Source: an uncultured Pelagibacteraceae bacterium
Lineage (GTDB): Bacteria > Pseudomonadota > Alphaproteobacteria > Pelagibacterales > Pelagibacteraceae
DNA length: 64,000 bases
Reading direction: 5' to 3'
Assembly (NCBI GenBank): GCA_902596325.1
Contig: CACJTN010000001.1
Coordinates: forward strand, 5,035 to 69,034
A program made the position numbers and the translations under genes. Below the pieces are notes generated by a model. That model did no database searches. It saw only the letters and a program-made list of their open reading frames with translations, and was not told the DNA's origin. The stretch's first letter is position 1, and each line of letters begins with the position of its first letter. Of this stretch, positions 1 to 19,757 are shown one piece after another.

Positions 1-555
1 TTTTTTTGCACCTTTTAGCGTGTGAAGTTCTGCTCCTTGTAAATCAATAATCCAGTGGTCATAATTTCTCAAATTTATTTGCTCTTTTTCACAAATCGTA
101 TCTAAGGTTTGCATATCCAATTTAATTTTTTTAATCATCTCAACTTTATGTTTTTCCCATAACAGACCTTTTTTTACATCCTCAGAAAGATTAAAAATAG
201 ATGAACAAGATTGATCTTTGTTTGAGATATTAAAATCAACATTTTTTATATTTTTTTCCCCTAATAAAGCTTTTACAGCTCTCTGATTATGGTAATTATT
301 TACATTTATTTTTAACTCTTCAAAAATTTCTGGGATAGCCTCTATCCAAACAACTTTTTTATTAAACCAATTATAGATTTCTGCCTCTTTTCCTCTGTGA
401 CCACCTAAATGCAAAATACCCCTCGAATTTAATATACACTCGATGTTTTTAAGATTTGGTTTGTCATATGCATAACCGGCTTGACGAGTTCTATTAATTT
501 TAATTAAAGTCCATCCGAAACTATTAAGAACTTTTTTAATAAATTTTTTGATCAT
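1..555 (-). CDS. FkbM family methyltransferase (3' end runs off the window; not in ORF track)
   Basis: Manual translation from ATG at 555: MIKKFIKKVL...GILHLGGHRGKEAE...VVWIEAIPE...DMQTLDTI...WIIDLQGAELHTLKGAKK, matching the FkbM motifs (xGAxxG-like, EA/EP, TLD, IDxQGAEL). Confidence 0.85.
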   Translation of the reverse strand, partial: MIKKFIKKVLNSFGWTLIKINRTRQAGYAYDKPNLKNIECILNSRGILHLGGHRGKEAEIYNWFNKKVVWIEAIPEIFEELKINVNNYHNQRAVKALLGEKNIKNVDFNISNKDQSCSSIFNLSEDVKKGLLWEKHKVEMIKKIKLDMQTLDTICEKEQINLRNYDHWIIDLQGAELHTLKGAKK

Positions 556-563
556 AAATTAAT

Positions 564-1634: not shown

Positions 1635-1685
1635 GATAATCTATGTAGCATTATTTAAATTTTTGTATATAAAACATTTCTATAT

Positions 1686-3790: not shown

Positions 3791-4398
3791 ATTTTTCTTA
3801 AAATATTTTTTAAAGATTGATTTCTTTCTTGTAAATTATCAAATGGTAAAAGATTATTATCATTTAACTTCTTAATTATAGCTAAGCCTGATGACATAAA
3901 TGAAAAATTTAATTCAAAATTTTCAATATTTTTGGAGTAAATTGATAGTAAAATTTTAAAAGTCTCTTTGTTATTAATTTCGCAATAAAAATTATTTCTA
4001 GGTTGATCTTTTAAATAAGGTAAGTGGGATATATCATCTATAAATATATATCCTTCTTTTCTAATTTTCGGATAATAACCATATATCAGTTTCTTTACGT
4101 GATTTGCTTCATGTAGACTATCAATAAATAATACATCTATCTTCTCTGGCAATTTAGAGTTTATATATTCAAAATTGTCATCTCTTGATTTTAAAAAATT
4201 CCAATTTGAATCATTCAAAATTTTTGAACAATCTTTGATATCAACAGAAAAAAGTTTACCATTATTTGCTTTACAAATTTGAAAAAATTTTTTTGTGGAT
4301 CTACCATTTTCTACTCCCAATTCGAGTATTATTGGATTACTAATCTTAGATATCAAAGGTATCAAAAACTTGTCTAATTTAAGACTATATTCATCCAT
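3766..4398 (-). CDS. Class I SAM-dependent methyltransferase (Methyltransf_24-like)
   Basis: ILELGVENGRST, LFSVDI, DVLFIDSLH, GYIFIDD. Confidence 0.85.
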   Translation of the reverse strand: MDEYSLKLDKFLIPLISKISNPIILELGVENGRSTKKFFQICKANNGKLFSVDIKDCSKILNDSNWNFLKSRDDNFEYINSKLPEKIDVLFIDSLHEANHVKKLIYGYYPKIRKEGYIFIDDISHLPYLKDQPRNNFYCEINNKETFKILLSIYSKNIENFELNFSFMSSGLAIIKKLNDNNLLPFDNLQERNQSLKNILRKIWKKLKKD

Positions 4399-4478
4399 AT
4401 TATATGTTAAACATATTATTCTGTAATAATTAAAAAATATACATAATACTATAAACTTTAAAAAGCAAATTAACTAAA

Positions 4479-5615
4479 TTGAAAAAAAACAAAGTTTATT
4501 ATTGGTCTCCATTTTTAACTCCAATTGCTACACGCAGAGCAGTTATTAATTCTGCATATAGTTTAAATAAATTTAATGATGATTATGATGCAAAGATATT
4601 AAATTTTTTTGGCGAGTTTAATCAAAGTATTAATGACATTAAAAAAAAAAAAATAGAGACAATAAATTTTTATAATAAAAATTTTTTAAAATTTCTTCCG
4701 AAGTATGGAAAATTTTCTAGCAGATTATCATTTTTATTTTTTTTTATTTTTGGCTTTTTTCCACTTTTTAAAATATTAAAAATAAATCCCCCTAAATATT
4801 TAATAATTCATTTAATTACATCTTTACCTCTGAGTATGTTAATATTTTTTAGTTTTAAAACAAAATTTGTCTTAAGAATTTCTGGTTTACCAAGACTAAA
4901 TTTATTTAGAAAAATCTTGTGGAAAATTTCACTAAAGAAAATTCACCTAGTTACATGTCCCTCAAAAGAAACCTATGAATATTTAAAAAATTTAAAACTT
5001 TGCGATGAAAATAAATTAAAAGTTTTATATGACCCAATAATTAACATAAAAGAAATGCGGAATAACATAAAAAAAAAAATTGAGATTGATGAAGATTTTT
5101 ATATGGCTGTAGGTAGATTGACTGCACAAAAAAATTTTGTATTTCTGTGTAAATGTTTCAATAAATTGCTGAAAAAAAACTTAAATTTAAAACTTTACAT
5201 ATTGGGTGAGGGTGAAGACTATTATTTAATAAATAATTATTTACAAAAAAATAATCTAACACAAAATATCAAACTATTAGGCCATATAGAAAATGTTATG
5301 CCTTATTATAAAAAAACAAAAGGGTTTATACTTTCATCTTTATGGGAGGATCCAGGATTTGTTCTTATTGAGGCTGCATTTTGTAGATCGCCAGTATATT
5401 CGTCAAATGCTAAGCCAGGTCCTTATGAAATAATTAAAGATAACATTAATGGAACTAATTTCATTTCAAATGATGTAAATAGTTTTATAAACAAATTTGA
5501 AGTTTTCTTAAAAAATTCAAAAAATAATAAAATAATTTTAGAAAATTTGAAATTAAGCAAAAATTTTACCATATTTAATCATTACATGAAATTTTCAAAA
5601 TATCTGACACAATAA
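4479..5615 (+). CDS. Glycosyltransferase family 4 (GT-B)
   Basis: AVGRLTAQKN, ILGEGED, LSSLWEDPGFVLIEA; TTG start. Confidence 0.85.
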   Translation: MKKNKVYYWSPFLTPIATRRAVINSAYSLNKFNDDYDAKILNFFGEFNQSINDIKKKKIETINFYNKNFLKFLPKYGKFSSRLSFLFFFIFGFFPLFKILKINPPKYLIIHLITSLPLSMLIFFSFKTKFVLRISGLPRLNLFRKILWKISLKKIHLVTCPSKETYEYLKNLKLCDENKLKVLYDPIINIKEMRNNIKKKIEIDEDFYMAVGRLTAQKNFVFLCKCFNKLLKKNLNLKLYILGEGEDYYLINNYLQKNNLTQNIKLLGHIENVMPYYKKTKGFILSSLWEDPGFVLIEAAFCRSPVYSSNAKPGPYEIIKDNINGTNFISNDVNSFINKFEVFLKNSKNNKIILENLKLSKNFTIFNHYMKFSKYLTQ

Positions 5616-7327
5616 TGTTTCTAAATTTTTCTATTTTTGTTATTTTTAGTATTTTAATAATCACTAGCACTTTAGGTTATGGGATATTTTTCAGTAATAA
5701 AATATTTGGCAATTCAAAATATTTAAGTTTACCTTTAAGAGGTTTTTTTGGGATTTTTTTTTTATACTTAATTTCAAGTTTTACTCATCTTATATTGCCA
5801 CATAATTATATGCATAACTCTATTATAATTATTATAGGATTATTTTTTTTTTTTAAACTAGTAAATAAAACAAGAAATCACAAAAAAGATTTAAAGCACA
5901 TAATATTTTTCTTTGTTTGTTTATTTACAGGATTTTTAATTTCCAAAACTAATGAAGATTTTTCTTACTATCACTTGCCTAATTCTCTACAATTTGCAAT
6001 GAATAAACTCGAATTCGGTTTAGGAAATCTTAATCATGGATTTAAACATTTCTCGTCTCTATTTTTAATTAATTCTTTATTTTTTTTACCATTAGTTAAA
6101 TTCTATCTTTTTAATATTACTAATTTTATGTTGCAAATTTTTTTCTTTTCAACTCTTACATTAATACTTCATAATAACTATAAAAATAATTTCATAATCA
6201 TTTTAGCTTTAGTAAGCTTAGTTACATATTTAACCAAATTTTACAGACTTTCAGAATATGGGGCAGATTATTTTGGTCAGTTTTTGGTCTTATTAAGTTT
6301 TATAATTATTTCTTTAAGTTTTTCTGTCTCAAAGAAAACCGCAATTGACAAAAAAGAAATATTTTTAATTGCTATGTATTTAATGATATTCGCAATTACT
6401 ACAAAATTTTTATATGCTATTTATCTTTTAATTCCAATGTTTGTAATTTTTAATCAATATAACCTTAGAGAAATTATAGATCTAATCTTTGAAAAAAAAT
6501 TTTTTACAATATCTATCGTGACAATATTTACTATTATCTTCTTTAATTATACTGCTACTGGTTGTCTTATATACCCTGTGATTATAAGCTGTTTTACCGA
6601 ATCTACAGATTGGTCAGTTCCTAAAGATGCAATTAATCAACTAAACTTACATTATAAAGCTTGGTCTAAAGCAGGAATAGGAGCGGGATATGGTGTTGAG
6701 GATACAAAAAATTACTTATCCGGTTTAAGCTGGATTGATAATTGGATTAAAACATACTTTTTTAATAAGGTAAGTGACTATATTCTTGTTATTTTTTTTA
6801 TTTCATTAATTTTATTATTTGTATTTAAGAAAAATTTAAAAAAAAATAATAAAACTAATTTTAAAGTTAATATTTCTTTAATAAGTTACATTTCAATATT
6901 TATAGTTTTTTCTTTATGGTTTTTTAATTTTCCTAGTTTAAGATATGCAGGATATTCTATTTTTTTTTTACTGCTTGTAGTGCCTTTATGTATTTATTTA
7001 GGGAAAAATTTAAGACCTAATAAAATAATTATTAAAAAGAAAATTAAAATTTTAATAATATTAGCTTTGATCATATTTAATTTTAAAAATATACAAAGAC
7101 TTAATAATGAACTTAATTTGAAAAATTATGAGCACCACAATTTTTTAAATTTTCCCTTCTATTGGGTAGATCATGTAGAGTATAAATCTATTTTAATAAA
7201 TGGGAAGTATTTCTATGAAGTCACTAATAATAAATCTTGCTGGAATGTTCCACCAACGTGTTTAAGAGATAGAAATTATCTAGATATACAAAATAAAAAT
7301 GGATATTTCTTTTATAAAAAAAAATGA
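5615..7327 (+). CDS. Polytopic membrane protein, possible GT-C-fold glycosyltransferase
   Basis: More than 10 hydrophobic segments; loop motif NEDFSYYHLP, TGCLIYP, PSLRY, C-terminal CWNVPPTC; sits between GT genes with 1-4 nt overlaps. Confidence 0.55.
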   Translation: MFLNFSIFVIFSILIITSTLGYGIFFSNKIFGNSKYLSLPLRGFFGIFFLYLISSFTHLILPHNYMHNSIIIIIGLFFFFKLVNKTRNHKKDLKHIIFFFVCLFTGFLISKTNEDFSYYHLPNSLQFAMNKLEFGLGNLNHGFKHFSSLFLINSLFFLPLVKFYLFNITNFMLQIFFFSTLTLILHNNYKNNFIIILALVSLVTYLTKFYRLSEYGADYFGQFLVLLSFIIISLSFSVSKKTAIDKKEIFLIAMYLMIFAITTKFLYAIYLLIPMFVIFNQYNLREIIDLIFEKKFFTISIVTIFTIIFFNYTATGCLIYPVIISCFTESTDWSVPKDAINQLNLHYKAWSKAGIGAGYGVEDTKNYLSGLSWIDNWIKTYFFNKVSDYILVIFFISLILLFVFKKNLKKNNKTNFKVNISLISYISIFIVFSLWFFNFPSLRYAGYSIFFLLLVVPLCIYLGKNLRPNKIIIKKKIKILIILALIIFNFKNIQRLNNELNLKNYEHHNFLNFPFYWVDHVEYKSILINGKYFYEVTNNKSCWNVPPTCLRDRNYLDIQNKNGYFFYKKK

Positions 7328-8070
7328 GACAAAAGCCATTAATTTCGATTGTACTTACTTATTATAAAAAACGCAAATATGTAAATAGAACCTTACAATC
7401 TATACTTCTTCAAAATTATAAAAATTTTGAGTTAATATTTGTATATGATGACAGTGATCTTAAGGACTATAAATATATTAAAAAAATTTTAATTAAATTT
7501 AAAAAAAAAAAAGTTTTACTTAATAAAAAAAATTTAGGTGTATCTCAATCTAGAAATAAAGCTTTAAAGATATGTAAAGGTGAATATATTGCTTTTATTG
7601 ATGCTGATGACATTTGGACTAAATCAAAATTAAACAAACAACTAAAAATAATGCAAAAAAATTTGCTTAACTTTTCATTCACATCATACAATGTAATAAA
7701 TAATCAAAATAAATTAATTAATAAAAGATTTGTCAGCAATGATCCTTCATATGCTTCATTGCAAAAAAAAAACATCATTGGTCTTAGCACAGTAATGTTT
7801 AACAGAGAAATTTTAAAAGATGTAAAATTTCCAAATTTAAAAACCCAAGAAGATTTTGCCGTATGGCTTAATTTATTGAAAAAAGGTCACAAATTATCCC
7901 ATATTAAAAACTTATTATCTTCATGGAGAAAAATAGACGACTCACTTTCTTCAAATAGTTTGCAAAAAGTTATCGATGCATTTAAATTATATTATACTTA
8001 TCAAAATAAAAATTTAACATTATCTATTTATAGTGTAATAGTCCTAGGATATAATAAATTATTTAAATAA
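7324..8070 (+). CDS. Glycosyltransferase family 2 (TuaG-like)
   Basis: LISIVLTYY, YDDSD, GVSQSRN, GEYIAFIDADD, QEDFAVW. Confidence 0.9.
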   Translation: MRQKPLISIVLTYYKKRKYVNRTLQSILLQNYKNFELIFVYDDSDLKDYKYIKKILIKFKKKKVLLNKKNLGVSQSRNKALKICKGEYIAFIDADDIWTKSKLNKQLKIMQKNLLNFSFTSYNVINNQNKLINKRFVSNDPSYASLQKKNIIGLSTVMFNREILKDVKFPNLKTQEDFAVWLNLLKKGHKLSHIKNLLSSWRKIDDSLSSNSLQKVIDAFKLYYTYQNKNLTLSIYSVIVLGYNKLFK

Positions 8071-8077
8071 CTAACTT

Positions 8078-9133
8078 TTGAAAAAAAAAGCTATAATCAC
8101 AGGTGTTACTGGTCAAGACGGATCTTATCTTGCTGAATTATTATTAAAGAAAGGGTATATTGTCCACGGAATTAAAAGAAAGTCCTCAACATTTAACACG
8201 AATAGAATAGATCATATTTACAAAGATATTCATACAACAAAAAATTTCTTTTTACATTATGGAGATCTGGCAGACTCTAATAGTTTGTTTAATATAATAA
8301 ACAGAATTAAGCCGGATGAAATTTATAACCTTGGTGCACAAAGCCATGTGGGGCACTCCTTTGAAATTCCAGAATATACTTCCGAAGTTAGTGGTCTGGG
8401 TACTTTGAGAATTTTAGAAGCCATGAGGTTTCTCAGATTAAAAAAATGCAGATTTTATCAAGCAAGTACATCTGAATTGTTTGGCGAAACCTTTGGAAAA
8501 AATTCTTTTACGGAAAAATCTTTAATGGTTCCTAAATCTCCATATGGTGTTTCAAAATTATATTCTTTTTGGATAACCAAAGTTTATAGGCAGGCTTATG
8601 GTTTTCATGCATCTAATGGAATTTTATTTAATCATGAAAGTCCTCGAAGAGGGGAAACATTTGTTACTAGAAAAATTACAAGGTTTTTTGCAAACAAAAT
8701 TTTAGGATCAAAAGACATACTTTATATTGGAAACTTAGATGCTAAAAGAGATTGGGGTCATGCTAAAGATTACGTAGAAATCCAATGGAAAATTATACAA
8801 CAAAAAAAGCCTGATGATTTTGTGATTGCGACTGGCAAAACAATAAGTGTAAGGGAGTTTATAAATGAATGTTGTAAATATTTAAAATTGAAAATTATTT
8901 GGAAAGGTAGTGGTTTAAAAGAAAAAGCATACTTAGACTTAGGAAAGAAAAAAAAATTAATAATTAAGGTTGATAGAAAATATTATAGACCTTTAGAAAT
9001 TGATTATTTAAAGGGAAATCCAAGTAAAGCAATAAAAATATTAAAATACAAATTAAAGTACAATTTAAAAAATCTCGTTAAGGACATGTTAGATTCTGAT
9101 ATTAAATTAGCTAAATTAGATCAAAAAAAATGA
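8078..9133 (+). CDS. gmd: GDP-mannose 4,6-dehydratase
   Basis: ITGVTGQDGSYLAELLL, YNLGAQSHV, FYQASTSELFG, SPYGVSK, LFNHESPRRGETFVTRKI. Confidence 0.98.
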   Translation: MKKKAIITGVTGQDGSYLAELLLKKGYIVHGIKRKSSTFNTNRIDHIYKDIHTTKNFFLHYGDLADSNSLFNIINRIKPDEIYNLGAQSHVGHSFEIPEYTSEVSGLGTLRILEAMRFLRLKKCRFYQASTSELFGETFGKNSFTEKSLMVPKSPYGVSKLYSFWITKVYRQAYGFHASNGILFNHESPRRGETFVTRKITRFFANKILGSKDILYIGNLDAKRDWGHAKDYVEIQWKIIQQKKPDDFVIATGKTISVREFINECCKYLKLKIIWKGSGLKEKAYLDLGKKKKLIIKVDRKYYRPLEIDYLKGNPSKAIKILKYKLKYNLKNLVKDMLDSDIKLAKLDQKK

Positions 9134-10080
9134 AAAAAAATAGCTATATTTTTCTAGCAGGCCATAAGGGACTTGTTGGAAGCTCATTATTAAATCTTTT
9201 AAAAAGAAAAGGTTATAAAAATATTATTACAGTTGATAAAAAAAAACTAAACTTAAGAGATTATAAAAAAGTTAAAAAGTTTTTTAAAAATAAAAAAATT
9301 GAATATTTAATTATGGCTGCAGCCAGAGCTGGAGGTATAATTGCAAATAGCACAAATCAAAAAGATTTTTTTATCGAAAATGTTGAAATTCAAAACTCTT
9401 TGTTGCAACTTGCCTTGGACAAAAAAATTAAAAGAACAATTTATTTAGGGACTTCATGCATCTATCCTAAATTTGCAAAAAATCCAATTTCTGAAAGTAG
9501 TTTATTGACTGGTGAGCTGGAAAAAACAAATCAATGTTATGCCATTGCCAAAATATCTGGCATCAAGCTTTCCGAAGCATTATTTGAAGATTATAAATTG
9601 AATATTATTTGTATTATGCCAACGAATGTATATGGAAATAACGATAACTTTGATAAAATAAACGGTCATGTAATTCCAGCAATGGTCTCCAAATTTATTG
9701 AGGCTAAAAAAAAATCGAAAAAAATTGTCAAGTTATTGGGAACTGGAAAACCAATTAGAGAATTTATTCACTCCGATGATCTCGCAGAGGCAATATTAAA
9801 ATGTCTTAATGTTTCTTCAAAAAAAATGAATAAAATTTTTAAGGGTAAACTACCGATTTTAAATATCGGTACTGGGGAGAATATTAAAATTTTAAATTTA
9901 GCAAAAATGATATCTAAGTTTTCAAATTATAGTGGAATAATAAAATTTGATAAAAGATTCCCCGATGGGACTTATAAAAAAAATCTTAACTCAAAGATTA
10001 TAAAAAAATTAGGTTGGAAACCACGTATTAGTTTAAAAAATGGACTTAAAAAAGTTATTTTAAAACAGTTTAATATATGA
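9130..10080 (+). CDS. fcl: GDP-L-fucose synthase
   Basis: AGHKGLVGS, AAARAGGI, GTSCIYPK, YAIAKISG, MPTNVYG, REFIHSDDLA; directly after gmd. Confidence 0.95.
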   Translation: MKKNSYIFLAGHKGLVGSSLLNLLKRKGYKNIITVDKKKLNLRDYKKVKKFFKNKKIEYLIMAAARAGGIIANSTNQKDFFIENVEIQNSLLQLALDKKIKRTIYLGTSCIYPKFAKNPISESSLLTGELEKTNQCYAIAKISGIKLSEALFEDYKLNIICIMPTNVYGNNDNFDKINGHVIPAMVSKFIEAKKKSKKIVKLLGTGKPIREFIHSDDLAEAILKCLNVSSKKMNKIFKGKLPILNIGTGENIKILNLAKMISKFSNYSGIIKFDKRFPDGTYKKNLNSKIIKKLGWKPRISLKNGLKKVILKQFNI

Positions 10081-11108
10081 ATATAACCTATATTTTATGT
10101 TTAATAATATTTTTTATATTTATTTATTTTGTATTTAAAAAATATGAAATATTACAAGAAAATGTCAATTATTCAGATCACAAAAAACTTGGTAAAGCCA
10201 ATAAAGCTCCTATACTTATTGGTGGGTTATTTATAGTAACCTTTTTATTGGTATTTTTGCCGATAAATTTAATCTTTTTTAAAATTACCTCAATCTTGAT
10301 TTTTTTAATTGGTATACTTTCTGATAAAAATATTATTTCTAGCCCAAAATTAAGATTATTTTTCCAAATTAGTGTTATTTTTTTTTTAGTACATTTTGAA
10401 AAACTCAATATTGATAGAGTTAATATTGATTTTATAGATCATTTATTAGACATATATTATTTAAATTATATTTTTACAATTTTCTGTTTTGCTGTTTTGA
10501 TAAATGGGAGCAATTTTTTAGATGGTCTAAATGGATTGATATCTGGATATTTTATTTTGGTATTAGCCTCAAGTTTTTATATTTCAAATTATCACATAAA
10601 TCTTAGTAGTAATATCAAAGAGCTAATCAATCTACTTTTAATTATAATAATAATTTTTTATATTTTTAATTTATTCGGAATTGTCTACCTGGGAGATAGT
10701 GGATCTTATCTATTATCGATATCGGTTGGTTTCATTTTAATTAAAATGCATCAACATACAAATTCTATTTCTCCTTACTATATTGCCAACATGCTATGGT
10801 ATCCTGCATTTGAAAATTTATTTTCTTTGTTAAGACGTCTTTTAAGCAAAAATAAAATATCATGTGCTGATAAATTACATCTTCATCAATTAATTTTCAG
10901 ATTTTTAAGGTCAAAAAACATAATTAAAGATGACTGGATGAACACTGTATCTGGGCTTATAGTAATACTGATGAATATACCTTCAATATATATTGCTACA
11001 AATTACTATTTTCACTCTGTTATTTTGGTAAGTATAATTTTTTATAATTTAATTTTATACTTATCAGTCTATTATTTTCTTTCTAAAAATTTTAGACTTA
11101 AAAAATAA
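10077..11108 (+). CDS. MraY/WecA-family undecaprenyl-phosphate N-acetylhexosamine-1-phosphate transferase
   Basis: Multi-TM protein; PILIGG, NGSNFLDGLNGL, YLGDSGSY, DKLHLHQL. Confidence 0.85.
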   Translation: MNITYILCLIIFFIFIYFVFKKYEILQENVNYSDHKKLGKANKAPILIGGLFIVTFLLVFLPINLIFFKITSILIFLIGILSDKNIISSPKLRLFFQISVIFFLVHFEKLNIDRVNIDFIDHLLDIYYLNYIFTIFCFAVLINGSNFLDGLNGLISGYFILVLASSFYISNYHINLSSNIKELINLLLIIIIIFYIFNLFGIVYLGDSGSYLLSISVGFILIKMHQHTNSISPYYIANMLWYPAFENLFSLLRRLLSKNKISCADKLHLHQLIFRFLRSKNIIKDDWMNTVSGLIVILMNIPSIYIATNYYFHSVILVSIIFYNLILYLSVYYFLSKNFRLKK

Positions 11109-11753
11109 TTTTATAATTTCTGATAAAATCAAAAAACCATCCTTCAATTCATTCACTTTTTTTTTGCCACCTATTCTTTTTTTTTCATAAGACGGTATAC
11201 TTGCATAATTCATCTTAGATATTTCAATTTTAATTGGAAACTCGACACAAAACCTAAAATCATTTGATTTAATATTTAACTCCTTAAATTTTGAAGTCTT
11301 TCCTAATACATAAGTGTATAATATATCACTTAAATTAAGTGAGAACAGTAATCTGCCTATCAATGAAAAAATTTTATTACCGATGTATGTGATTATCGTA
11401 TCGTCATCGCTACCTCCTCCACTGAGATATCTAGATGCAAATACAAAATCATTATTTTTACATTTTATTAACATTTTTTCTAAATCCTTATATTCGAAAG
11501 AGCCGTCAGCATTGAATATGCAAAAGTATTTCGTAGAGCACTTATTTATACCTTCAGTAATTGAATTACCATAACCCTTACCCATTTGTTCGTGGATTAA
11601 TATATTAAAATTTTTTACAGAGTTTATAGTTTCTAGATCGTTCTTTGGCAAAGATACAATTATTTTATGATTAAGGTATTCAAGACTTTGCAAAACTTTT
11701 GGAAGCGATTCTTTTTCTTTTTTTGCAGGAATAATTAAAGTTAAATCGGTCAT
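11064..11753 (-). CDS. Glycosyltransferase family 2, DPM1/polyprenyl-phosphate sugar transferase-like
   Basis: IIPAKKEKESL, GKGYGNSI, FNADGS, ASRYLSGGG, RIGGKKK..DG. Confidence 0.85.
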   Translation of the reverse strand: MTDLTLIIPAKKEKESLPKVLQSLEYLNHKIIVSLPKNDLETINSVKNFNILIHEQMGKGYGNSITEGINKCSTKYFCIFNADGSFEYKDLEKMLIKCKNNDFVFASRYLSGGGSDDDTIITYIGNKIFSLIGRLLFSLNLSDILYTYVLGKTSKFKELNIKSNDFRFCVEFPIKIEISKMNYASIPSYEKKRIGGKKKVNELKDGFLILSEIIKLFFKSKIFRKKIID

Positions 11754-11780
11754 AATCTATAAGTATTATTTATTTAAATC

Positions 11781-12419
11781 TCATATGAGAAGATTTCTAT
11801 TTAATAAATTTACTCCAACAACATATTTTGAAAATTTTTGAAATCTGAAATTATTTTTTGGAATAATGTAATTTCTGAATAATTTGTCATTTGAGGCTGG
11901 ATATTTAAATTCCATAATTTCTTTATCAAAATTTATTTTAAAATTTGTTTTTACACTAAAAAATTCAAGTTGAGTATCAAGAGTAGCCCTTATATCCCCA
12001 TGCGCATACTCAAAGTATTCTCTCAGGTATTTTGTTTTAATTATTGGGAACATATTTTTTTTTAAAATTTTTTTCAAATAATTTTCTAATTGGCTGTTGG
12101 GGTAATTTCTTATGTCTTTCTCAATATTGTAAATATTTTTAAGTTTAATTGTATCTTTCCAACCTAGAAAACCATTTTTATTTTTAATCTCTAAATTTAT
12201 AAAATCTGAGGACTCATTATACCATCTAATCCTTGTTTTTAATCTTTGAGTATTACCATCAACATTGTCTTTAAAAGACGAGAAATTCAAATCATCAAAA
12301 TATAAAGAATTAACTATTCTTTTGTCATATTTTTTATAAAATTTGTTTGTAACTAGAAAATTTTTAAATAAGTAAGCATTATTTTTTCTTTCAATATATT
12401 TTCTCTCAAATCTTTTCAT
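11781..12419 (-). CDS. VTC domain (CYTH/TTM superfamily) polyphosphate polymerase-like protein
   Basis: RFERKY (RxExKY), VNSLYFDD, KTRIRWY, LEIKNK, YLREYF, IRATLD, IMEFKY, FSKY motifs. Confidence 0.9.
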   Translation of the reverse strand: MKRFERKYIERKNNAYLFKNFLVTNKFYKKYDKRIVNSLYFDDLNFSSFKDNVDGNTQRLKTRIRWYNESSDFINLEIKNKNGFLGWKDTIKLKNIYNIEKDIRNYPNSQLENYLKKILKKNMFPIIKTKYLREYFEYAHGDIRATLDTQLEFFSVKTNFKINFDKEIMEFKYPASNDKLFRNYIIPKNNFRFQKFSKYVVGVNLLNRNLLI

Positions 12420-12422
12420 TTT

Positions 12423-15038
12423 CTACCTGATTGTTTGTTTTCCATACAGGTTTCCGTACATCATACCCTCAATATTTTTTCCCTCAAGATTGCCAAAAAT
12501 TCTTTTTCCATTTACTTCGAGCGTGCTTATTTTGTCTACTAGGAAAATATCATTACTTTTATTTAAAATTAAATTATCAACTTTTAAATAAGCTGGTCCA
12601 TATTCACTTTTTTTTACAAATACTGCAAATGGAACAGTGCTATTATTTATTTTAATATTAGATATATTTGCTTCAGAGCTGTCTTTAACAGCTATAGCTA
12701 TTTCAGAATTATTAAGAATTAAGTTTTTAATTTTAACTTTAGATCCCTCACCTACGCTTATTGACTTATCTTGCACCTTCTCCGCAAAAAAATTTTTACC
12801 ATTTATTTCTGAATTTGAAAAATCTAAACAATCATTTCCTATATCTCTACACTTTAAATTAATAAATTTTAATTTCCCCTCATCAACATCTACTGCATCT
12901 GAGACCACATCGATTAATTCAACATTCTCTAATTCGGTTTTAGAGTTAATAAAGTTTATAAAATCTTCAGAATGCGATTTTTTAAAAATTGTATCCCTTA
13001 TATAATTTTTACTATTAATAAAGTTTACAGCGCCATATAAACTAAAACCTTTTAAATTTGGAGCCTTTAAATTTTTAAATATTGTATTTGAAATATTATT
13101 TGTATTTCCATTAAATATCAAGCTACCATAATCTGGTTCCAGACCCTCAATTTTTGATTTATTATTTTCATCTCCTGTTATTTGTAAATCCCCGTAGATA
13201 ACTAAAGATGCTCCATTTGATAAATAAATATTTTGATTTTTTTTTAACTTTAGTACTAAGTTTTTATTTAATAGAGTATTTTCTTTAATATTAATGCTAT
13301 CTTCAACTGGTATAATAATCTTACCTTTTTTTATGCTTTTTATAGTATCCTCAAAAGGTTTAAAACTCTTGAAACTTGTTGGGAAATAATTTGAATTTAA
13401 TTTTGGATTATTATAAATATTAAATTTTTTGTTATTATTGTTATAATCACTTATTATAATCTTTTCACAGTTATTTTTCCAATTAATTGTTGAATTTTTA
13501 TATACCCAATATTCTTTTTTCATATCATTTTTTTTTTCACAATTAGGAATAATTTTTATTGGTATAGAATTTAAGAAACCTTTTATAGTTAATCTGTCGT
13601 TATTCTTAGAAAAAATAAATTCATCAAAATTAATATTGTTTATTTTATTCCTAATAAATTTAGCTCTTTTATATAAATATTTATCGTCGTAAATATAAGG
13701 AGCAATACCTTTCCAAAATATCTTATCAACTTTTGAAAAATCTTTATAAAAAGCATTGTTGTAAAGTTTTATTTCATTTTGATATTTACTTAGAAAATTA
13801 TCTATATATTTTTCCTCAGTTATTAAATTTAAATGTTTTAGATATTTTTTTACAAATTCATTTCGTAAATTATCTTTATCTTTTAAAAAAAACTTTAAAA
13901 ACCAATCTCTTTCATCACAGATCCATGAACAGCTTGATCTTTCATTTAAAAAATCTAAAATTATAAAATTAGAAAAATCTCCAGTCCCCTTGTGACCATC
14001 AAAACTAATAGGATCAATTTTACCTATTATTGGGTTATAATAAAATCTTGCACTTCTTGGCAGCGCTCCATGGTAAGTTTCAAGTAAATCAGAAACTGCA
14101 AAATATTTTGCCCACTGATCCCAATTTATGAAATTTTCGTAATCATCTGCTTTATTTTCTTTTAAAGAGTTTAATATTGAATATCCTGATTTAATTTTAT
14201 CTGGATCATTTAAATACCAATCAAACTCTGAGTAAGCTTCAAAAATTATTTCAGGAAAATTTCTTCCTTGTCTATCGTTAATACCAAATATTGGTCCATT
14301 TCTTCTTCCGTTTTTTTCTAATAGTTCTTTTGAAAATCCTTCCTCAATTACAAAAATTCCTCTATCTATTCCATTTACAAAAAAATTTACTACTGAATAA
14401 TCTAAAGAAATTATCTCTGACTCTTTATTTAGTTTTTGAAAAATATACTCATAAATATAGTTTCGAGCTATAGGTTTTTGAATAGAGAATTCTTCTAAAC
14501 CATTTAATCTATCGTCAGAGGTTATATCAATTTTATATGAGGTAATATTTGGTTCTGAAAAATGAATTTCTCTGTCACCTTTCACTCTTAATTTAACGGG
14601 GTATTCAGATTGTTCATATAATAAAGTTCCATTCACATATTTTTCTACCAGACTTCTGTCTACTTTATTTAAATTTTCAAAATTAGCCCTGTTCTGTCTT
14701 TGGAACTCAAGAGCAATAACTGATTTTTGATTCAAATTTAGATAAAGCTTTGGAACTTTAGGTGGCAAAAGATTAAAATAAATGCTTTTAATATAACTAT
14801 TAAGGTAATTTGTAGATTTTTTTGCCTCTAAACCGGTAGTTTTAAAAATTACAGAAGAGATTAAATTTATAATTTTTTCGGGTGTATGAATTTTTTTTAT
14901 TGGACTTAATTGATACCAAAAAAAAATACCTAAAAAAACTATAACTTGAAAACAAAATAAATAGAAAACAAAATTTTTAATATTTTCAAATAATTTGTTT
15001 TTAATAATTTTAAATGAATTTTTTTTTTTTATTAACAT
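12423..15038 (-). CDS. Membrane-anchored CotH-family kinase with C-terminal right-handed beta-helix
   Basis: Single N-terminal TM (FVFYLFCFQVIVFLGIFFWY); VKLRVKGD, SYKIDI, VNFFVNGIDRGIFVIEE, YH..PRSARFYYNP..DPISFD; C-terminal repeats SEDFINF / SDAVDVD / GNDCLDFS / DKSISVGE / IAIAVKDSS. Confidence 0.85.
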   Translation of the reverse strand: MLIKKKNSFKIIKNKLFENIKNFVFYLFCFQVIVFLGIFFWYQLSPIKKIHTPEKIINLISSVIFKTTGLEAKKSTNYLNSYIKSIYFNLLPPKVPKLYLNLNQKSVIALEFQRQNRANFENLNKVDRSLVEKYVNGTLLYEQSEYPVKLRVKGDREIHFSEPNITSYKIDITSDDRLNGLEEFSIQKPIARNYIYEYIFQKLNKESEIISLDYSVVNFFVNGIDRGIFVIEEGFSKELLEKNGRRNGPIFGINDRQGRNFPEIIFEAYSEFDWYLNDPDKIKSGYSILNSLKENKADDYENFINWDQWAKYFAVSDLLETYHGALPRSARFYYNPIIGKIDPISFDGHKGTGDFSNFIILDFLNERSSCSWICDERDWFLKFFLKDKDNLRNEFVKKYLKHLNLITEEKYIDNFLSKYQNEIKLYNNAFYKDFSKVDKIFWKGIAPYIYDDKYLYKRAKFIRNKINNINFDEFIFSKNNDRLTIKGFLNSIPIKIIPNCEKKNDMKKEYWVYKNSTINWKNNCEKIIISDYNNNNKKFNIYNNPKLNSNYFPTSFKSFKPFEDTIKSIKKGKIIIPVEDSINIKENTLLNKNLVLKLKKNQNIYLSNGASLVIYGDLQITGDENNKSKIEGLEPDYGSLIFNGNTNNISNTIFKNLKAPNLKGFSLYGAVNFINSKNYIRDTIFKKSHSEDFINFINSKTELENVELIDVVSDAVDVDEGKLKFINLKCRDIGNDCLDFSNSEINGKNFFAEKVQDKSISVGEGSKVKIKNLILNNSEIAIAVKDSSEANISNIKINNSTVPFAVFVKKSEYGPAYLKVDNLILNKSNDIFLVDKISTLEVNGKRIFGNLEGKNIEGMMYGNLYGKQTIR

Positions 15039-15752
15039 TTATTCACTTAAATTTTCATTTGAATAAAATGATGCAACAATATCTTTCTGGTTTAAATTTC
15101 TAATTCGATCAATTGCTTTCAACTCAGCTTTTTTATTTTTGAATTCAACCCAAAATAAATATATTTCGGTATTTTCTAATATCGTTGATGATTTTAAATT
15201 CAAATAGCTAGTATCCTTTTCTAAAATCTTTATAATTTTTTGTATACTTATTGATTTGTTTTTAATCTCTAGCTGCAAAACATTTATATTTTTTGTATCA
15301 GACATATGAGTATCTGATCTTCTAAATTTACTAAAAATAAATAATATTATAATAATAAAGATTGTTGCAGAAATTCCCACTATATATTGGTTAGCACCAC
15401 ATGCCAAACCAATGCCTATAATTAAAAATAGGTATATTAATTCTTCTGGCTCTTTTATTGCCGCCCTGAATCTTACAATAGACAAAGCCCCCACCAGCCC
15501 AAGAGATAAGGCTAATGAAAATTTTATAACTGTTATTACAAGAGTTGTAGTAATTGACAATGGAACAAAAAGGTCTGAGAAGTAACTTTTATTACTTAAG
15601 GTCATTGCACATTTTACATATACATACTTAACTAATAAAGCCAGAATTGCCGAAAGTAAAAGTGAAATTAAAAAACTAAAAATATCTATTTCAATAGACT
15701 GATTTAAAAAAAAATCTTTAAAATTGTCTAAGTTTTGAACACCTAATTCCAT
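15039..15752 (-). CDS. DUF4956 family membrane protein
   Basis: SLALSLGLVGALSIVRFRAAIKEPEELIYLF..IGIGLACG signature; about 5 TM segments plus a soluble C-terminal domain. Confidence 0.9.
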   Translation of the reverse strand: MELGVQNLDNFKDFFLNQSIEIDIFSFLISLLLSAILALLVKYVYVKCAMTLSNKSYFSDLFVPLSITTTLVITVIKFSLALSLGLVGALSIVRFRAAIKEPEELIYLFLIIGIGLACGANQYIVGISATIFIIIILFIFSKFRRSDTHMSDTKNINVLQLEIKNKSISIQKIIKILEKDTSYLNLKSSTILENTEIYLFWVEFKNKKAELKAIDRIRNLNQKDIVASFYSNENLSE

Positions 15753-15754
15753 TA

Positions 15755-16438
15755 TTATTTCTTATTATTCTCCCAAAACCCTTTTATTAATTTATATGGT
15801 TCAGCAGACTTATTAATTAAATTTTTTGCATCATTAACACTACCATAACCATTAATTATATTGTTATTATTTAATTTATAATTTCGAAACCATATTTCAA
15901 TTATCTCTAACGCTCCAGGATAATTTTTACTTAAATCATCAAAATTATTTAAAATTGAAGAGTTAAAAACAAAACTATTTTGATTTACAGCAACTATTTT
16001 GCTATCGAGTCTACCTTCATCTTTCATATTTATTACTCCTAAAATTTTACCTTTAATAACTGAACCTCTTTTTAATCTTTCGCCTAATAATATTACGTCA
16101 ATAGGATCTCCGTCTCCTCCTATTTCTTTAGAAAATAATGTTTGTGGCACAAATCCATAATTAGATATATATGGCAAGTACTTAATTTTTCTAAAGCTAT
16201 TATTCTGGAATTCCCAACGGATAGAACCATCTTTTTTCCATAATTCCCACTTATCATTATCTCCTGCAGGAATTTCAACAACGACATTAATTGTTCCATC
16301 AGCGTTAAATGCATTATATTCATGAAAAAAATTTTTTTTACCAGTGATTTTATTCTCTAATGAAAAACTTTGAGATTTAAGCAAAAAAAAGAGTAAACCT
16401 AAAAATATAATTAATGAAATTTTTTTTTTTGTCATCAT
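15755..16438 (-). CDS. ppa: Family I inorganic pyrophosphatase with N-terminal signal peptide
   Basis: VVVEIPAG..KWE, NYGFVPQT, GDGDPIDV (DxDPxD), DEGRLDSKIV, WFRNYK; N-terminus MTKKKISLIIFLGLLFFLLKSQSFS. Confidence 0.9.
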   Translation of the reverse strand: MMTKKKISLIIFLGLLFFLLKSQSFSLENKITGKKNFFHEYNAFNADGTINVVVEIPAGDNDKWELWKKDGSIRWEFQNNSFRKIKYLPYISNYGFVPQTLFSKEIGGDGDPIDVILLGERLKRGSVIKGKILGVINMKDEGRLDSKIVAVNQNSFVFNSSILNNFDDLSKNYPGALEIIEIWFRNYKLNNNNIINGYGSVNDAKNLINKSAEPYKLIKGFWENNKK

Positions 16439-16516
16439 AAGATAAATTCTTTATAGATAATAAGAAACAAAATTACAAATTTTGGTTAATCTAAAATATA
16501 ATATATAAATAAATTA

Positions 16517-17302
16517 ATGAAAAGAATATATGCATCTGTTCTGATCACTAACTTTAATAAAGAAAAATTTATAAAAAGAACACTTAATTCTTGTAAAAAT
16601 CAAAATTTTAAAGCTAAAGAAGTAATTATCTTTGATGATTGCTCCACAGATAACTCTTTGTCTGTGATCAAAAAATTTAAAAATTTTAAGTTAATAAAAA
16701 ATAAAAAAAAAATGTTTAAGTCTGGACCACTAAATCAGATATTTGCCATAAGTAGATTGATAAAAGCCTCAAAAGGAGAGATAATTTTTTTGTTAGATAG
16801 TGATGATGAATATAAAAAAGATAAAATTTCTAAAATTTGTAAATTATTTAAAAAAAATAAAAAATTAAACTTTATCCAAGATACACCAATTAATAGTTTA
16901 ACAAAAAAAAAATTATTTTTAAAAAAAAGAAGAAGTTCATATACAGTTTGGCCAAGGTTTTTCCCAACAAGTACAATTGCAGTCAGAAAATCTTATTTTA
17001 AACATTTTTTAAAATTGGTTTTACCAAGCAAGTTTCCGAATTTAGAAATAGATGCCAGAATTTCAATTTATACATATTTAAAGAAAGAATTTGCTTTTAT
17101 AAAACAAAGTTATACCATTTATAAAACTGACACTAATGGAATTACCTCAAACTATAGAAAATATCGAAAAAAATGGTGGATAAAAAGAATGGAAGCTTTT
17201 AATTACACGCTATATCTATCAAAAAAATTTAAATTGGATTTTAAAAAAGGACCAGACTTTTATTTAACTAAATTTATTAATTTCCTCTTAGAGCCTAAAT
17301 AA
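16517..17302 (+). CDS. Glycosyltransferase family 2
   Basis: SVLITNFN, FDDCSTD, GEIIFLLDSDD. Confidence 0.9.
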   Translation: MKRIYASVLITNFNKEKFIKRTLNSCKNQNFKAKEVIIFDDCSTDNSLSVIKKFKNFKLIKNKKKMFKSGPLNQIFAISRLIKASKGEIIFLLDSDDEYKKDKISKICKLFKKNKKLNFIQDTPINSLTKKKLFLKKRRSSYTVWPRFFPTSTIAVRKSYFKHFLKLVLPSKFPNLEIDARISIYTYLKKEFAFIKQSYTIYKTDTNGITSNYRKYRKKWWIKRMEAFNYTLYLSKKFKLDFKKGPDFYLTKFINFLLEPK

Positions 17303-18507
17303 GAAATCATAACACCATAGTTTGTCCAAAAAATTGTTGCTCCATAAGTTGTAAAAAAACTACCTGATGGTAGTAAAGGATTAATATAAATAAGACAAAA
17401 TATTGTTGAACTGATTAAAAAAATTTGATTTTTACTCAGTATTTTTTTGAAAGCAAAAATGAAAGTAATTAAAAAAAATAAAAAAAAACAAGTAAAGCCA
17501 AATATTCCTGTCTCCGCAAGTATTTCAAAATTAATTTGGTGTGGATGTGTAGTTATTACATGCCAATTATTATATTTGACATCGTCTTTAAATTCATCCT
17601 CTATAATTTTTTTTACCTCAACCCTGAAATTTTTTATACCTGACCCAAAAAAAGGGTATTTTTTAAAAACAAGTATTGCAGTTTTATAGTGGGTAAAGTA
17701 AATGTTGGTTTTAATATTATTTGCATTCCATTGTGAAAAATATCTATACTTTAAATTTTCATTTTTATAAATTATTGATGTAAAAACTATTATGCTGACT
17801 AAAGATAAATATAATAATTTAAGCTTATGTTCTCTGAAATAAAAAAATAAAATAATTATAATTGAAAATAATATTTTTATAAAATTGGACCTTTCACCAA
17901 TTAAAAAAGCTATTATTAAAAATATTAATGCAAATGCAAAAATAATTTTATAATCTTTTTTTTTAAAATAGCTATAAATTGTTGCTAAAGATAGCAAACA
18001 AAATCCAAAATAATAGCCACCAATTTTAAGCTCATCGTCTAAAAAACTTGCTAATCTTCCGTCAAGATTTGACTTATGTCCTAATATATTTTTTCCTGAA
18101 AAATATTCAATTAGAAGATCGACGTTAACTACTATAAATACTAATAACCAAGATTTTAAAATTAAATCTTTGTATTTTGTATCATTAATTAAAAATAGGT
18201 ATCTTATTGCCTGAGCTAAAAAAATAAACCTTATAAATCCTGTAGCCCTAAAAATACTTAAAGTGCTATCTTGACTAAAAATCAAATTTACCAGTAATGA
18301 TACCCACAAAAATGAAAGTAAATAGAAGCTCCAGTCATGTAAAAAATTTAATTTTTTTTTAATAAATAATTCTAATATAAAAATAATTGATATTATAATA
18401 GTAATTAGATTTATAATTAATGATCCTGTTAATAGACTAATTGGTAATATCGCCACAAAAAAACTTAGAATCAATAAAGTTTTATTTTTTGATGCAATTA
18501 AATTCAT
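17260..18507 (-). CDS. O-antigen ligase family protein (Wzy_C/WaaL-like)
   Basis: Multi-TM protein; GERS, PFFGSGIKNFR, THPHQINFEILAETGIFG. Confidence 0.85.
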   Translation of the reverse strand: MNLIASKNKTLLILSFFVAILPISLLTGSLIINLITIIISIIFILELFIKKKLNFLHDWSFYLLSFLWVSLLVNLIFSQDSTLSIFRATGFIRFIFLAQAIRYLFLINDTKYKDLILKSWLLVFIVVNVDLLIEYFSGKNILGHKSNLDGRLASFLDDELKIGGYYFGFCLLSLATIYSYFKKKDYKIIFAFALIFLIIAFLIGERSNFIKILFSIIIILFFYFREHKLKLLYLSLVSIIVFTSIIYKNENLKYRYFSQWNANNIKTNIYFTHYKTAILVFKKYPFFGSGIKNFRVEVKKIIEDEFKDDVKYNNWHVITTHPHQINFEILAETGIFGFTCFFLFFLITFIFAFKKILSKNQIFLISSTIFCLIYINPLLPSGSFFTTYGATIFWTNYGVMISYLGSKRKLINLVK

Positions 18508-18590
18508 AATTGGATTTATATTTTTATAAATGTTATTTATTAATACAAGACATTATTAAAAAAGGGCTCATATTTTATTAAATTACAAGC

Positions 18591-18618
18591 TTTACAATAT
18601 TTTTTTTTTATATATAAA
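18591..18618 (+). promoter_or_regulatory. Putative sigma70 promoter of the 5S rRNA gene
   Basis: TTTACA (18591-18596), 16 nt, TATAAA (18613-18618), ending 6 nt before the 5S 5' end. Confidence 0.45.
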
Positions 18619-18624
18619 CTGCAT

Positions 18625-18740
18625 GCCTGGTGATTATTGCGAAAGGGTAATACCCGATACCATTCCGAACTCGGAAGTCAAGCCTTTCTGCGCCGATGGT
18701 ACTTTGTCTTAAGACACGGAAGAGTAGGACGTTGCCAGGC
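18625..18740 (+). rRNA. rrf: 5S ribosomal RNA (stand-alone)
   Basis: GCCTGG...CCAGGC terminal helix, CCATTCCGAACTCGGAAGTCAAG, GCCGATGGTACT, GAGTAGGACGTTGCCAGGC; 116 nt. Confidence 0.97.
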
Positions 18741-18747
18741 TTATCAA

Positions 18748-19635
18748 ATGAAAAAAATTTTAATCGTTACAGGTGGAGCTGGATTTGTGGGCACTAACCT
18801 AATAGAATTTCTCCTAAAAAAAACTAAGCTTCAATTGATAAGTTTAGACAATTATTCAAGCGGTTCAAAAAAAAATCATTTAAATAATAAGCGAATTAAA
18901 TATATAAAAGGTGATACTAAAAACATTCATCGGATTTTAACCAAATATAAAAAAAATATACATACAATTTTCCACTTTGGAGAATTTGCCAGAATATATC
19001 AAAGTTTCAAAAACTTTGATAAATGTTATGAGTCTAATTCTTTAGGTTCTAAAGAAGTTTTTAAATTTTGTTTGGATAATAAAATTAAATTAATTTATTC
19101 AGCCACATCTGCAAGTTTAGGAAATTTAGGGAAAGATAAAAATTTATCGCCATATGCCTTTACAAAAGCAAAAAATTTGGAACTCTTAGAAAATTTAAAA
19201 AAATGGTTTAAATTTAAGTATGAAGTTATTTATTTCTATAATGTTTATGGACCTAGACAAATTAAAATAGGAGATATGGCAACAGTAATTGGAATATTCG
19301 AAAATTCTTATGTTAAAAAAAAACCTTTAACAGTTGTTAAACCAGGCACACAAACAAGAAGATTTACACATATTGATGATACAATTAGGACTTGTTTTGA
19401 GGCTTGGAAAAATAATAGATGTTTACATTATAGTATTTCAAATAAGAATATTTACTCAATATTGGAAGTTGCAAAATTTTTTAAAGTAAAAATCAAATTT
19501 TTACCTAAAAGAGCCGGTGAGAGGTATGCGTCAGCTTTGACCAATTTGTCATATAATAATAAAGTTCATAAGAGATACGGTAAAATACAATTGAAAGACT
19601 ATATAAATTCATTTATTAAAAGACATAAAAAATGA
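18748..19635 (+). CDS. NAD-dependent epimerase/dehydratase (extended SDR)
   Basis: True start is ATG 18748 ([15 protein letters not shown]); YAFTK (YxxxK), FYNVYGP; the ORF-track extension runs through the 5S gene and is spurious. Confidence 0.9.
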
Positions 19636-19757
19636 AAATCGCAAGCTCATTAAAATCCTTAAAAAAAAGAGACCTAAACTCTAAATTAGTTAAGAGGCGA
19701 GGTAGGGTTTATATAATAAACAAAAAAAACCCAAAATTTAAAGCAAGACAAAAGTAA
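19632..19757 (+). CDS. rpmJ: 50S ribosomal protein bL36 (zinc-free type); not in ORF track
   Basis: Manual translation [41 protein letters not shown], 41 aa. Confidence 0.97.

Follow-up and report, generated by a model that had tools for sequence, protein, structure and literature searches.

Genes for CotH, a poly-phosphate polymerase and a DUF4956 protein are described, in the accessible parts of two studies, as accessory genes of Gram-positive pel loci (10.1101/768473; 10.1101/2024.04.20.589940). According to the accessible text of the second, the S. intermedius set SIR_1592-1594 was found only together with pel, and its deletion gave no clear Pel phenotype. VTC and CotH genes are likewise listed for the C. 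perfringens locus NELoc-2, with no mechanism in the part of that paper available (PMC2879425). We analysed genes of the same three families in a 64,000-nucleotide stretch of DNA from an uncultured Pelagibacteraceae bacterium (assembly GCA_902596325.1, contig CACJTN010000001.1, positions 5,035 to 69,034 of the forward strand; hereafter the window), where they stand beside a gene for a family I inorganic pyrophosphatase (PPase).

The locus resembles the pel accessory set, as far as the available text of those papers describes it, in that the three families are contiguous and comprise a CotH-like protein predicted to be exported, a cytoplasmic VTC-like protein and an MgtC-like membrane protein with an ACT domain. 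It differs in belonging to a SAR11-like Gram-negative genus, in occupying many chromosomal sites, and in having no pel genes beside it: the neighbours are a WecA-like gene, a family 2 glycosyltransferase (GT2), an O-antigen ligase and sugar-nucleotide enzymes, and in relatives ilvC/leuA and housekeeping genes (the rest of the genome was not searched). It further differs in that CotH is fused to a beta-helix rather than to FN3, carries His in place of the catalytic Asp, and is accompanied by, or fused to, a PPase predicted to be exported. A first-pass annotation of this DNA, made from its sequence, had stated that VTC, DUF4956 and CotH genes co-occur in other bacteria; they do, and the set is in print as a pel accessory set without an explained function. 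A literature search, with subscription papers mostly outside its coverage, returned no paper that gives a function to bacterial VTC plus DUF4956, links a PPase to them or places them in SAR11, and the accessible part of PMC11210485 does not mention an exported bacterial family I PPase. The locus bears on two wider questions, what powers bacterial phosphoryl transfer outside the cytoplasm and how polyphosphate (polyP) leaves bacterial cells. New with respect to the published gene set are the strict link and the fusion of the PPase, and the His-for-Asp change.

A mobile three-gene cassette and its pyrophosphatase

The window carries five consecutive minus-strand genes, for the PPase, a DUF4956 membrane protein, a CotH/beta-helix protein, a VTC-type tunnel enzyme and a GT2 (Table 1). 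Their intergenic gaps are 2, 0, 3 and 27 nt and all five open reading frames (ORFs) are open; the coordinates, gaps and plus-strand glycan neighbours given in the first-pass annotation agreed with our ORF check. Four of the five products matched Pfam over the cut-off (pyrophosphatase, DUF4956, VTC and GT2). DUF4956-CotH-VTC is a mobile three-gene cassette, real and conserved, and the system in the window consists of four genes, the cassette and the PPase, without GT2.

The genus was surveyed in 301 genomes (at least 70% complete, plus the window's own genome), among which kin are not independent. VTC was found in 47 and DUF4956 in 46, with both in 42, and the same three of 14 control genomes matched both profiles. 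Fifty stretches around VTC matches were fetched for neighbourhood comparison; DUF4956, the CotH protein and VTC were all present in 38, and the remaining 12 run into a contig end. The order DUF4956-CotH-VTC was kept in 35 of the 38 complete loci, 82 of the 85 internal gaps were 30 nt or less (median 0 nt), and the pairwise distances among the three proteins correlated (r 0.71–0.84, 35 loci) at median identities of just 23–29%. Genus survey, gaps and co-varying distances thus support the conserved co-occurrence and tight coupling proposed for the three genes. Sites away from glycan genes include ilvC-leuA, mnmA, rpoD, guaA, tsaD, thyX and others, and DUF4956 directly follows ilvC in 7 of 36 loci. 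Two genomes each hold two divergent cassettes (G220, loci L056 and L083; G137, loci L043 and L068). An unannotated ORF of 343–348 aa lies between DUF4956 and CotH at L041:4905-5936, L042:12049-13083 and L250:4970-6016; the L041 and L042 copies have a hydrophobic segment at the N-terminus. The CotH protein had no match in plasmids, and VTC had none in phage records, a scan that did not extend to viral contigs.

Among other Pseudomonadota, VTC exceeded its cut-off in 7 of 400 genomes, and 10 such loci were compared. DUF4956 adjoins VTC at all 10, whereas CotH is present at only six, so the VTC-DUF4956 pair is the core of the system. A Pit (PHO4) phosphate transporter directly follows VTC at two of the 10 and an HlyD adaptor follows DUF4956 at one. 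Two alphaproteobacterial loci, L256:7021-11012 and L258:8921-12069, have DUF4956-VTC followed by Pit/PHO4 and no CotH, the former also with a phytase-like gene. Another variant, L251:1863-7566, has a lamin-tail/Fn3 CotH of the Asp type, VTC, DUF4956 and an HlyD adaptor in a row, and at L259:7017-13658 VTC-DUF4956 lies between two beta-helix proteins of ~880 aa, of which one has a CotH domain of the His type and the other was not scored by the kinase profile.

The family I PPase profile (PF00719) matched in only six of the 301 genus genomes, leaving 295 without a match, and all six copies lie within the cassette: three upstream of DUF4956, two between CotH and VTC, and one joined to the C-terminal end of the CotH/beta-helix protein. 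All four PPase-bearing relatives checked have a membrane H+-PPase that would serve housekeeping; none was found in the window's own genome, which is 64.5% complete. A metagenome scan with the PPase alignment gave 80 loci, with cassette genes beside the PPase in 20, all of them within the best 31. Eight of these 20 are fusions, the kinase part being visible in seven and one being cut. A GTDB scan with the PPase also gave 80 loci; the cassette is present at one of them, on a Pelagibacteraceae contig, as a 978-aa fusion. In all, ten ORFs, 33–67% identical, fuse the PPase to the beta-helix end, with the kinase part seen in nine. The PPase tree (FastTree, 75 rows) is compatible with a single origin of the fusion, and the ten are therefore not counted as ten independent events. 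A search of a large protein database for longer PPase homologues gave only two matches (400 and 521 aa), too short for a CotH fusion; since fusions exist, this search was insensitive.

Like family I soluble PPases in general, the cassette PPase matches PF00719 far over the cut-off and keeps the full active-site set: E55, K63, R83, Y94, D109, D111, D114, D140, D145, K147, Y187 and K188 are invariant in the six aligned copies, and the profile matches 63 solved PPase sequences. These residues presumably have the roles of their E. coli PPase counterparts, and the intact site suggests an active enzyme. Unlike those PPases, it has a signal-like N-terminus or is fused to a protein predicted to face the periplasm, and in this genus it occurs only in the cassette. 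The N-terminus has basic residues and a hydrophobic core, and all 16 complete stand-alone cassette PPases begin with such a core; a signal-peptidase motif test was discarded as too loose, because a truncated ORF also passed. Where the PPase is fused behind the beta-helix, it lies on the same side as the kinase fold. The export proposed in the first-pass annotation therefore stands as a prediction, from the N-termini, the cassette-only occurrence and the fusions. Taken together, the linkage, the signal-like N-termini of the stand-alone copies and the fusions speak most strongly for extracytoplasmic chemistry.

Four loci have, next to the cassette, a gene for a calcineurin-like metallophosphoesterase whose N-terminus bears a hydrophobic segment. 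The searched ORFs contained no copy away from the cassette, and the enzyme is a possible second exported phosphohydrolase partner; it was not found in the window's genome. Its copies are at L064:5005-5967, L068:2456-3358, L183:58-996 and L194:4955-5824, three of them sharing 22–34% identity. Enzymes that split phosphoanhydrides or phosphoesters are thus predicted to be placed repeatedly on the outer side, within the limit that the PPase is missing from 41 of the 47 cassette genomes. A clade of closely related PPases with signal or lipoprotein N-termini also occurs stand-alone in Bacteroidota, Nitrospinota and Planctomycetota (L090-L098, L102, L104, L109, L173-L178).

Proteins of the proposed polyphosphate machine

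Our preferred reading, held tentatively and given a little less than an even chance, is a split polyP machine that feeds periplasmic phosphoryl transfer. In this scheme VTC, in the cytoplasm, would make polyP from ATP and DUF4956 would move it through the inner membrane; in the periplasm the CotH/beta-helix protein would use it as phosphoryl donor, and the PPase would split leftover pyrophosphate (PPi), so that inorganic phosphate (Pi) could be re-imported. Residue patterns suggest that VTC is a polymerase and that the CotH protein and the PPase are periplasmic; context suggests transport by DUF4956, polyP as donor, and a role of His323 of the CotH protein as general base or in a phospho-His relay. 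The proposed logic, synthesis coupled to translocation, is that of the eukaryotic VTC complex (Vtc4/Vtc3/Vtc1; 3g3q, 8i6v, 7ytj; PMC9911596, in its accessible part), with which the cassette also shares the Vtc4 catalytic set and a membrane partner with invariant basic residues. Unlike that complex, it has a VTC protein with neither an SPX nor a fused membrane domain, with E5 where Vtc4 has Thr; the membrane partner belongs to the MgtC/DUF4956 type, in which no resemblance to Vtc1 was detected, and the CotH and PPase partners have no yeast counterpart.

The VTC profile matched only Vtc4, Vtc2 and Vtc3 among solved structures (all 10 matches are Vtc proteins; best E 8e-15). Residues were paired from the profile alignment to 3g3q (3g3q index plus 185). 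R63, R65 and E170 align with Vtc4 R264, R266 and E426, which were changed together to inactivate yeast VTC according to the available part of PMC9911596, and S197-K198 align with S457-K458, of which K458 is described as catalytic in the accessible text of PMC4641920. R63, R65, E170, K172, S197 and K198 are invariant in all 88 VTC sequences; as counterparts of Vtc4 K200/K281, K79 is invariant in the same 88 and K7 is kept in at least 90%. An acidic patch separates hydrolysing tunnel enzymes from the polymerase, and three glutamates bind a second metal (PMC4641920, in the part available). Two of these three are basic here as in Vtc4 (R3, K172), while E5 of the hydrolase ExExK motif is kept in 61 of 62 VTC sequences; the fourth acidic-patch position was not mappable in the alignment. 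PF09359 spans residues 3–206, with no hydrophobic segment in the chain, and Pfam and hydrophobicity gave neither an SPX domain nor a three-helix membrane domain. The pattern favours a polymerase over a hydrolase, in line with the polymerase-type assignment in the first-pass annotation. That VTC instead hydrolyses tripolyphosphate or NTPs, as other stand-alone tunnel enzymes of bacteria do, and that the genes are a phosphate-scavenging set, would fit the retained E5 and the exported phosphohydrolases nearby; given the Arg and Lys at the other two glutamate positions, the exclusively Vtc matches among solved structures and the invariant S197-K198, we regard it as very improbable.

The DUF4956 profile matches 6,911 representatives at 50% identity. 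The model of the protein in the window (pLDDT 76) has five helices over residues 24–147 and a C-terminal alpha/beta domain, of which residues 150–235 match ACT-like folds (Z up to 9.9). MgtC (PF02308) matched with 23.7 bits (E 7e-5), below the cut-off of 31.4; among 150 aligned members, Pfam recovered DUF4956 in all and a weak MgtC match in 27. G88, A89, L90, S91, R94 and R96 are invariant in all 150 and K100 is kept in at least 90%, so that a small-residue helix (80–94) ends at R94 and R96 and is followed by K100; by charge, these basic residues probably face the cytoplasm. Basic residues line the entrance of the yeast VTC channel (PMC9911596, accessible part), and by analogy R94/R96/K100 are compatible with a polyanion conduit, which makes DUF4956 a candidate conduit or membrane partner of VTC. 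The channel role given to it in the first-pass annotation was not supported: the protein resembles MgtC plus ACT, and no pore is evident. Fold and sequence searches listed no Vtc1/Vtc4 membrane domain, although the ACT domain filled the lists and the membrane part was barely probed. A complex prediction of three DUF4956 copies (20–237) with VTC scored 0.21 and 0.17 against a mark of 0.32, with a guessed copy number and controls not folded, and so counts on neither side of the question of binding.

These features also suit a scheme without export, in which the polyP made by VTC stays in the cytoplasm, DUF4956 acts on VTC as an MgtC-like anchor or a regulatory ACT-domain sensor, and the CotH/beta-helix protein stands apart as a periplasmic pseudokinase that binds a ligand and signals through DUF4956. 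The MgtC-like membrane part, the ACT domain and the loss of the catalytic Asp of CotH agree with it, and the authors of the streptococcal study suggest, in the part available, that polyP may remain cytoplasmic (10.1101/2024.04.20.589940). It leaves unexplained, however, the recruitment of exported PPi- and phosphoester-splitting enzymes to the cassette, with fusion to the periplasmic protein, and the invariant small-residue helix ending at R94/R96/K100, and we hold it to be decidedly improbable.

The 871-aa protein itself had no Pfam or NCBIfam match, PF08757 not exceeding its cut-off; PF08757 was matched in four of 36 orthologues and is carried by many full-length homologues at 34–57% identity. 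A CotH profile of close homologues matched no solved structure, and a broader one matched B. cereus CotH (5jd9, E 5.5e-15). In the AlphaFold model (pLDDT 91), residues 93–468 match Bacillus CotH (Z 27.0, root-mean-square deviation 3.5 Å over 324; Foldseek E 3e-12, TM 0.71 of target) and residues ~552–855 form a right-handed beta-helix. An N-terminal anchor is predicted at ~23–41. A single N-terminal hydrophobic segment with none later was found in 30 of 36 and 86 of 91 CotH homologues, and in 27 of those 30 and 72 of those 86 the positive charge is greater before the segment, so that kinase fold and beta-helix are both predicted to be periplasmic. A CotH domain outside the cytoplasm, as first proposed, is thus the predicted topology (N-in/C-out).

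The kinase fold shares with the Bacillus spore-coat kinase CotH (5jd9, 5jda; 10.1101/469122, accessible part) its overall structure, the second catalytic Asp (D347 = D251) and the adenine-stacking aromatics. It differs in His323 for D228, Ser329 for Asn, the membrane anchor, the C-terminal beta-helix and an identity of only 14–15%. The roles of B. subtilis D228 and D251 and of B. cereus Tyr142 and Trp245 are taken from the available part of 10.1101/469122, which cites Nguyen 2016. His323, placed by a sequence-profile alignment with one gap rather than by residue-level structural superposition, occupies the position of the catalytic Asp in 36 of 36, 91 of 91 and 52 of 55 aligned rows, whereas the lamin-tail/Fn3 CotH of L251 retains Asp. 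The Asn that follows in CotH is replaced by Ser329 in this clade, the metal-binding D347 is kept in 35 of 36 and 91 of 91, and E233 is also kept. Because of His323, ordinary kinase chemistry cannot be assumed; the CotH fold and beta-helix named in the first-pass annotation stand, while the assignment as a CotH-type kinase is weakened by the lost Asp and the lack of a Pfam match of its own.

Aromatic residues are kept at the adenine-stacking positions, F346 at that of Trp245 and F251 within one residue of that of Tyr142 (F/Y at 346 in 91 of 91 and 28 of 36; at 251 in 89 of 91 and 22 of 36), which fits a nucleotide donor. Some kinase-fold enzymes without the catalytic Asp transfer nucleotidyl groups, and a PPase is the classic partner of PPi-releasing transfer reactions. 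The CotH fold might accordingly transfer a nucleotidyl group from ATP or a different nucleotide that VTC and DUF4956 supply or regenerate, while the fused PPase pulls the reaction forward, as the aromatics, the replaced Asp and the fused PPase would allow. Against this, VTC matches polymerases rather than a nucleotide exporter or synthase, no periplasmic ATP route is evident, and most cassette genomes lack the PPase; we consider it quite unlikely.

The beta-helix has 16 near-invariant positions in 296 residues, mostly Asp and Lys, against 10 in 374 for the kinase fold: D692, D714, D717, D719, D736, D739, D757, K758, S761, G763, E764, K785, D786, S788, K809 and K810. They stand on successive rungs as an Asp/Lys ladder, and the domain seems to serve as a metal/polyanion or catalytic site and not just as a holder. 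With beta-helix polysaccharide enzymes (AlgG/AlgE epimerases, tailspikes, polygalacturonases) it shares the right-handed beta-helix (Z 26.3 to AlgG, Z 21–26 to many); it differs from them in 8–16% identity, no clear best family, and stacked xD/DxD/DK/KD/KK motifs specific to the cassette family, so that the fold is no sign of glycan binding. On the metagenome contig L194, kinase and beta-helix are separate genes of one cluster.

The glycan island and the excluded glycosyltransferase

Table 1 Features of the locus (positions in the window)
Feature	Position	Strand	Evidence and remarks
Family I inorganic pyrophosphatase (PPase), 227 aa	15755..16438	-	PF00719 E 7e-33; signal-peptide-like N-terminus
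DUF4956 inner-membrane protein, 237 aa	15039..15752	-	PF16316 E 9e-16; five predicted helices and C-terminal ACT/ferredoxin-like domain
CotH/beta-helix protein, 871 aa, predicted membrane-anchored	12423..15038	-	Homologues, profile match, AlphaFold model
VTC-type triphosphate tunnel enzyme, 212 aa, soluble	11781..12419	-	PF09359 E 3e-26; candidate polyphosphate polymerase
GT2, polyprenol-phosphate glycosyltransferase type, 229 aa	11064..11753	-	PF00535 E 3e-10
5S rRNA gene, right end of low-GC glycan island	18626..18740	+	Rfam RF00001, 85.9 bits
GT4/WecA-like gene, direct neighbour	10077-11108	+	
Second GT2, direct neighbour	16517-17302	+	

The first-pass annotation counted GT2 as part of the machine. 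Despite the tight spacing, this was not upheld, and GT2 was rejected as a fifth cassette member, since its orthologues track the WecA-like gene and not the cassette. Orthologues 48–57% identical lie near a WecA-like gene in two of five VTC-free genomes tested (G024, G031), the same two of the five that carry such a gene, and GT2 stays beside the WecA-like gene where the cassette sits elsewhere (L044, L049, L061). NCBIfam models for AglJ, PpgS and dolichyl-phosphate hexose transferase match it, all under the cut-off. GT2 is a resident of the glycan island, probably co-transcribed here with the cassette. Elsewhere, a GT2 and a PMT_2 membrane glycosyltransferase directly follow VTC at the ilvC-leuA site of L048:9704-12257, L014 likewise has a GT2 at that place, and in L073 a GT2 lies between CotH and VTC.

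The island has a GC content of 0.237 (window 1–19700), against 0.295 in the remaining window, and is dense in glycan genes by Pfam (glycosyltransferases, gmd/fcl, the WecA-like gene, an O-antigen ligase and sugar-nucleotide enzymes). With the 5S rRNA gene at its right end, the surface-glycan island described earlier is real; we take an rRNA-bounded island of this type to be the SAR11 O-chain region. The genome assembly itself is 828 kb with 29% GC. In four seawater metatranscriptomes from one study, short contigs touch all five genes with at most 7% of words, a weak signal that is no proof of transcription or of a single transcript, and scans for promoters and terminators gave about as many hits as expected by chance (50 against 45 +/- 6). 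A listed 332-aa epimerase ORF (18637-19635) begins inside the 5S rRNA gene, and a later Met is likely its true start. The island also holds a 570-aa multi-pass membrane protein without a Pfam family (5615-7327), recurrent in the gmd/fcl/WecA cluster of several relatives, and at 564-1634 and 1686-2690 a 356-aa protein without a family and a STELLO-like glycosyltransferase.

Possible uses of phosphate outside the inner membrane

The location in the island suggests that the acceptor may be an envelope glycan or glycoconjugate. A glycan-type gene, by hand-picked labels, lies within two ORFs at 23 of 39 assessable cassettes, and 11 further loci are cut. Since the other 16 lack one, the glycan or phage-receptor target drawn from island location in the first-pass annotation is a guess.

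Besides these 16 cassettes, the retained E5, the kept aromatics and the MgtC-like partner with no recognisable Vtc1-type domain, four further observations weigh against the split machine. VTC and DUF4956 stand without CotH at four of the 10 loci in other Pseudomonadota, so that the two must have a function independent of CotH. Just 6 of the 47 VTC-bearing genomes have the PPase, so PPi removal is not obligatory. In the GTDB scan, SAR11-derived profiles detected no cassette gene within 7 kb of the PPase at 79 of 80 loci. Deletion of the three counterparts in the streptococcus had almost no effect on Pel or aggregation, according to the available text (10.1101/2024.04.20.589940).

Part of this evidence bears on a periplasmic phosphate store, in which VTC and DUF4956 would deposit polyP as reserve or counter-ion, the His-variant CotH would bind or cut the polymer with water as acceptor, and the exported PPase, the metallophosphoesterase and Pi transporters would recover the phosphate, with no glycan modified. 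The Pit gene after VTC in two of the 10 loci, once with a phytase-like gene and without CotH, the Asp/Lys ladder, as expected of a metal/polyanion site, and the many cassettes at housekeeping sites are in its favour. SAR11 has also been reported to have a periplasmic Pi buffer, but the accessible part of that report credits it to free Pi paired with cations and not to polyP (PMC7250820). Further points against a store are that the kinase fold keeps D347, E233 and H323 and that the cassette, in ~15% of genomes, is independent of ppk1, which neither excludes nor tracks it (15 of 47 cassette genomes against 108 of 254 others; Fisher p 0.2). No Pho-box-like site was found in 36 upstream regions, and 16 of the 36 cassettes begin no more than 40 nt after a gene on the same strand, for example ilvC. 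On balance we find a store unlikely.

A bolder form of the split machine, which we think doubtful, is that VTC and an MgtC-family conduit export polyP, that the His-variant CotH phosphorylates the envelope without ATP while the beta-helix ladder grips the metal-bound polymer, and that the fused or exported PPase clears the PPi stub. If true, polyP would reach the outside of the cytoplasm independently of PPK and take part in a new kind of phosphoryl transfer, in roughly one of every six genomes of the genus that is most abundant among marine bacteria. A 2026 preprint describes, in its available part, extracellular polyP in B. cereus that does not depend on PPK and has no known pathway; that species has no VTC4 homologue (PMC13484657), so the cassette is not the explanation of that polyP.

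The PPase link and fusion, with the change of Asp to His, sharpen the hypothesis that polyP is exported and used in the periplasm, in which DUF4956 would be the channel, polyP the donor and an envelope molecule the acceptor. The bacterial VTC and DUF4956 families are large, and this variant makes the idea testable with three or four compact genes and clear residues for mutation (VTC K198, DUF4956 R94/R96, CotH H323 and the beta-helix aspartates). The PPase fusion suggests that PPi is produced in the periplasm. If phosphate is spent or stored in the envelope, the cassette would be ecologically relevant in a lineage of the phosphate-poor ocean.

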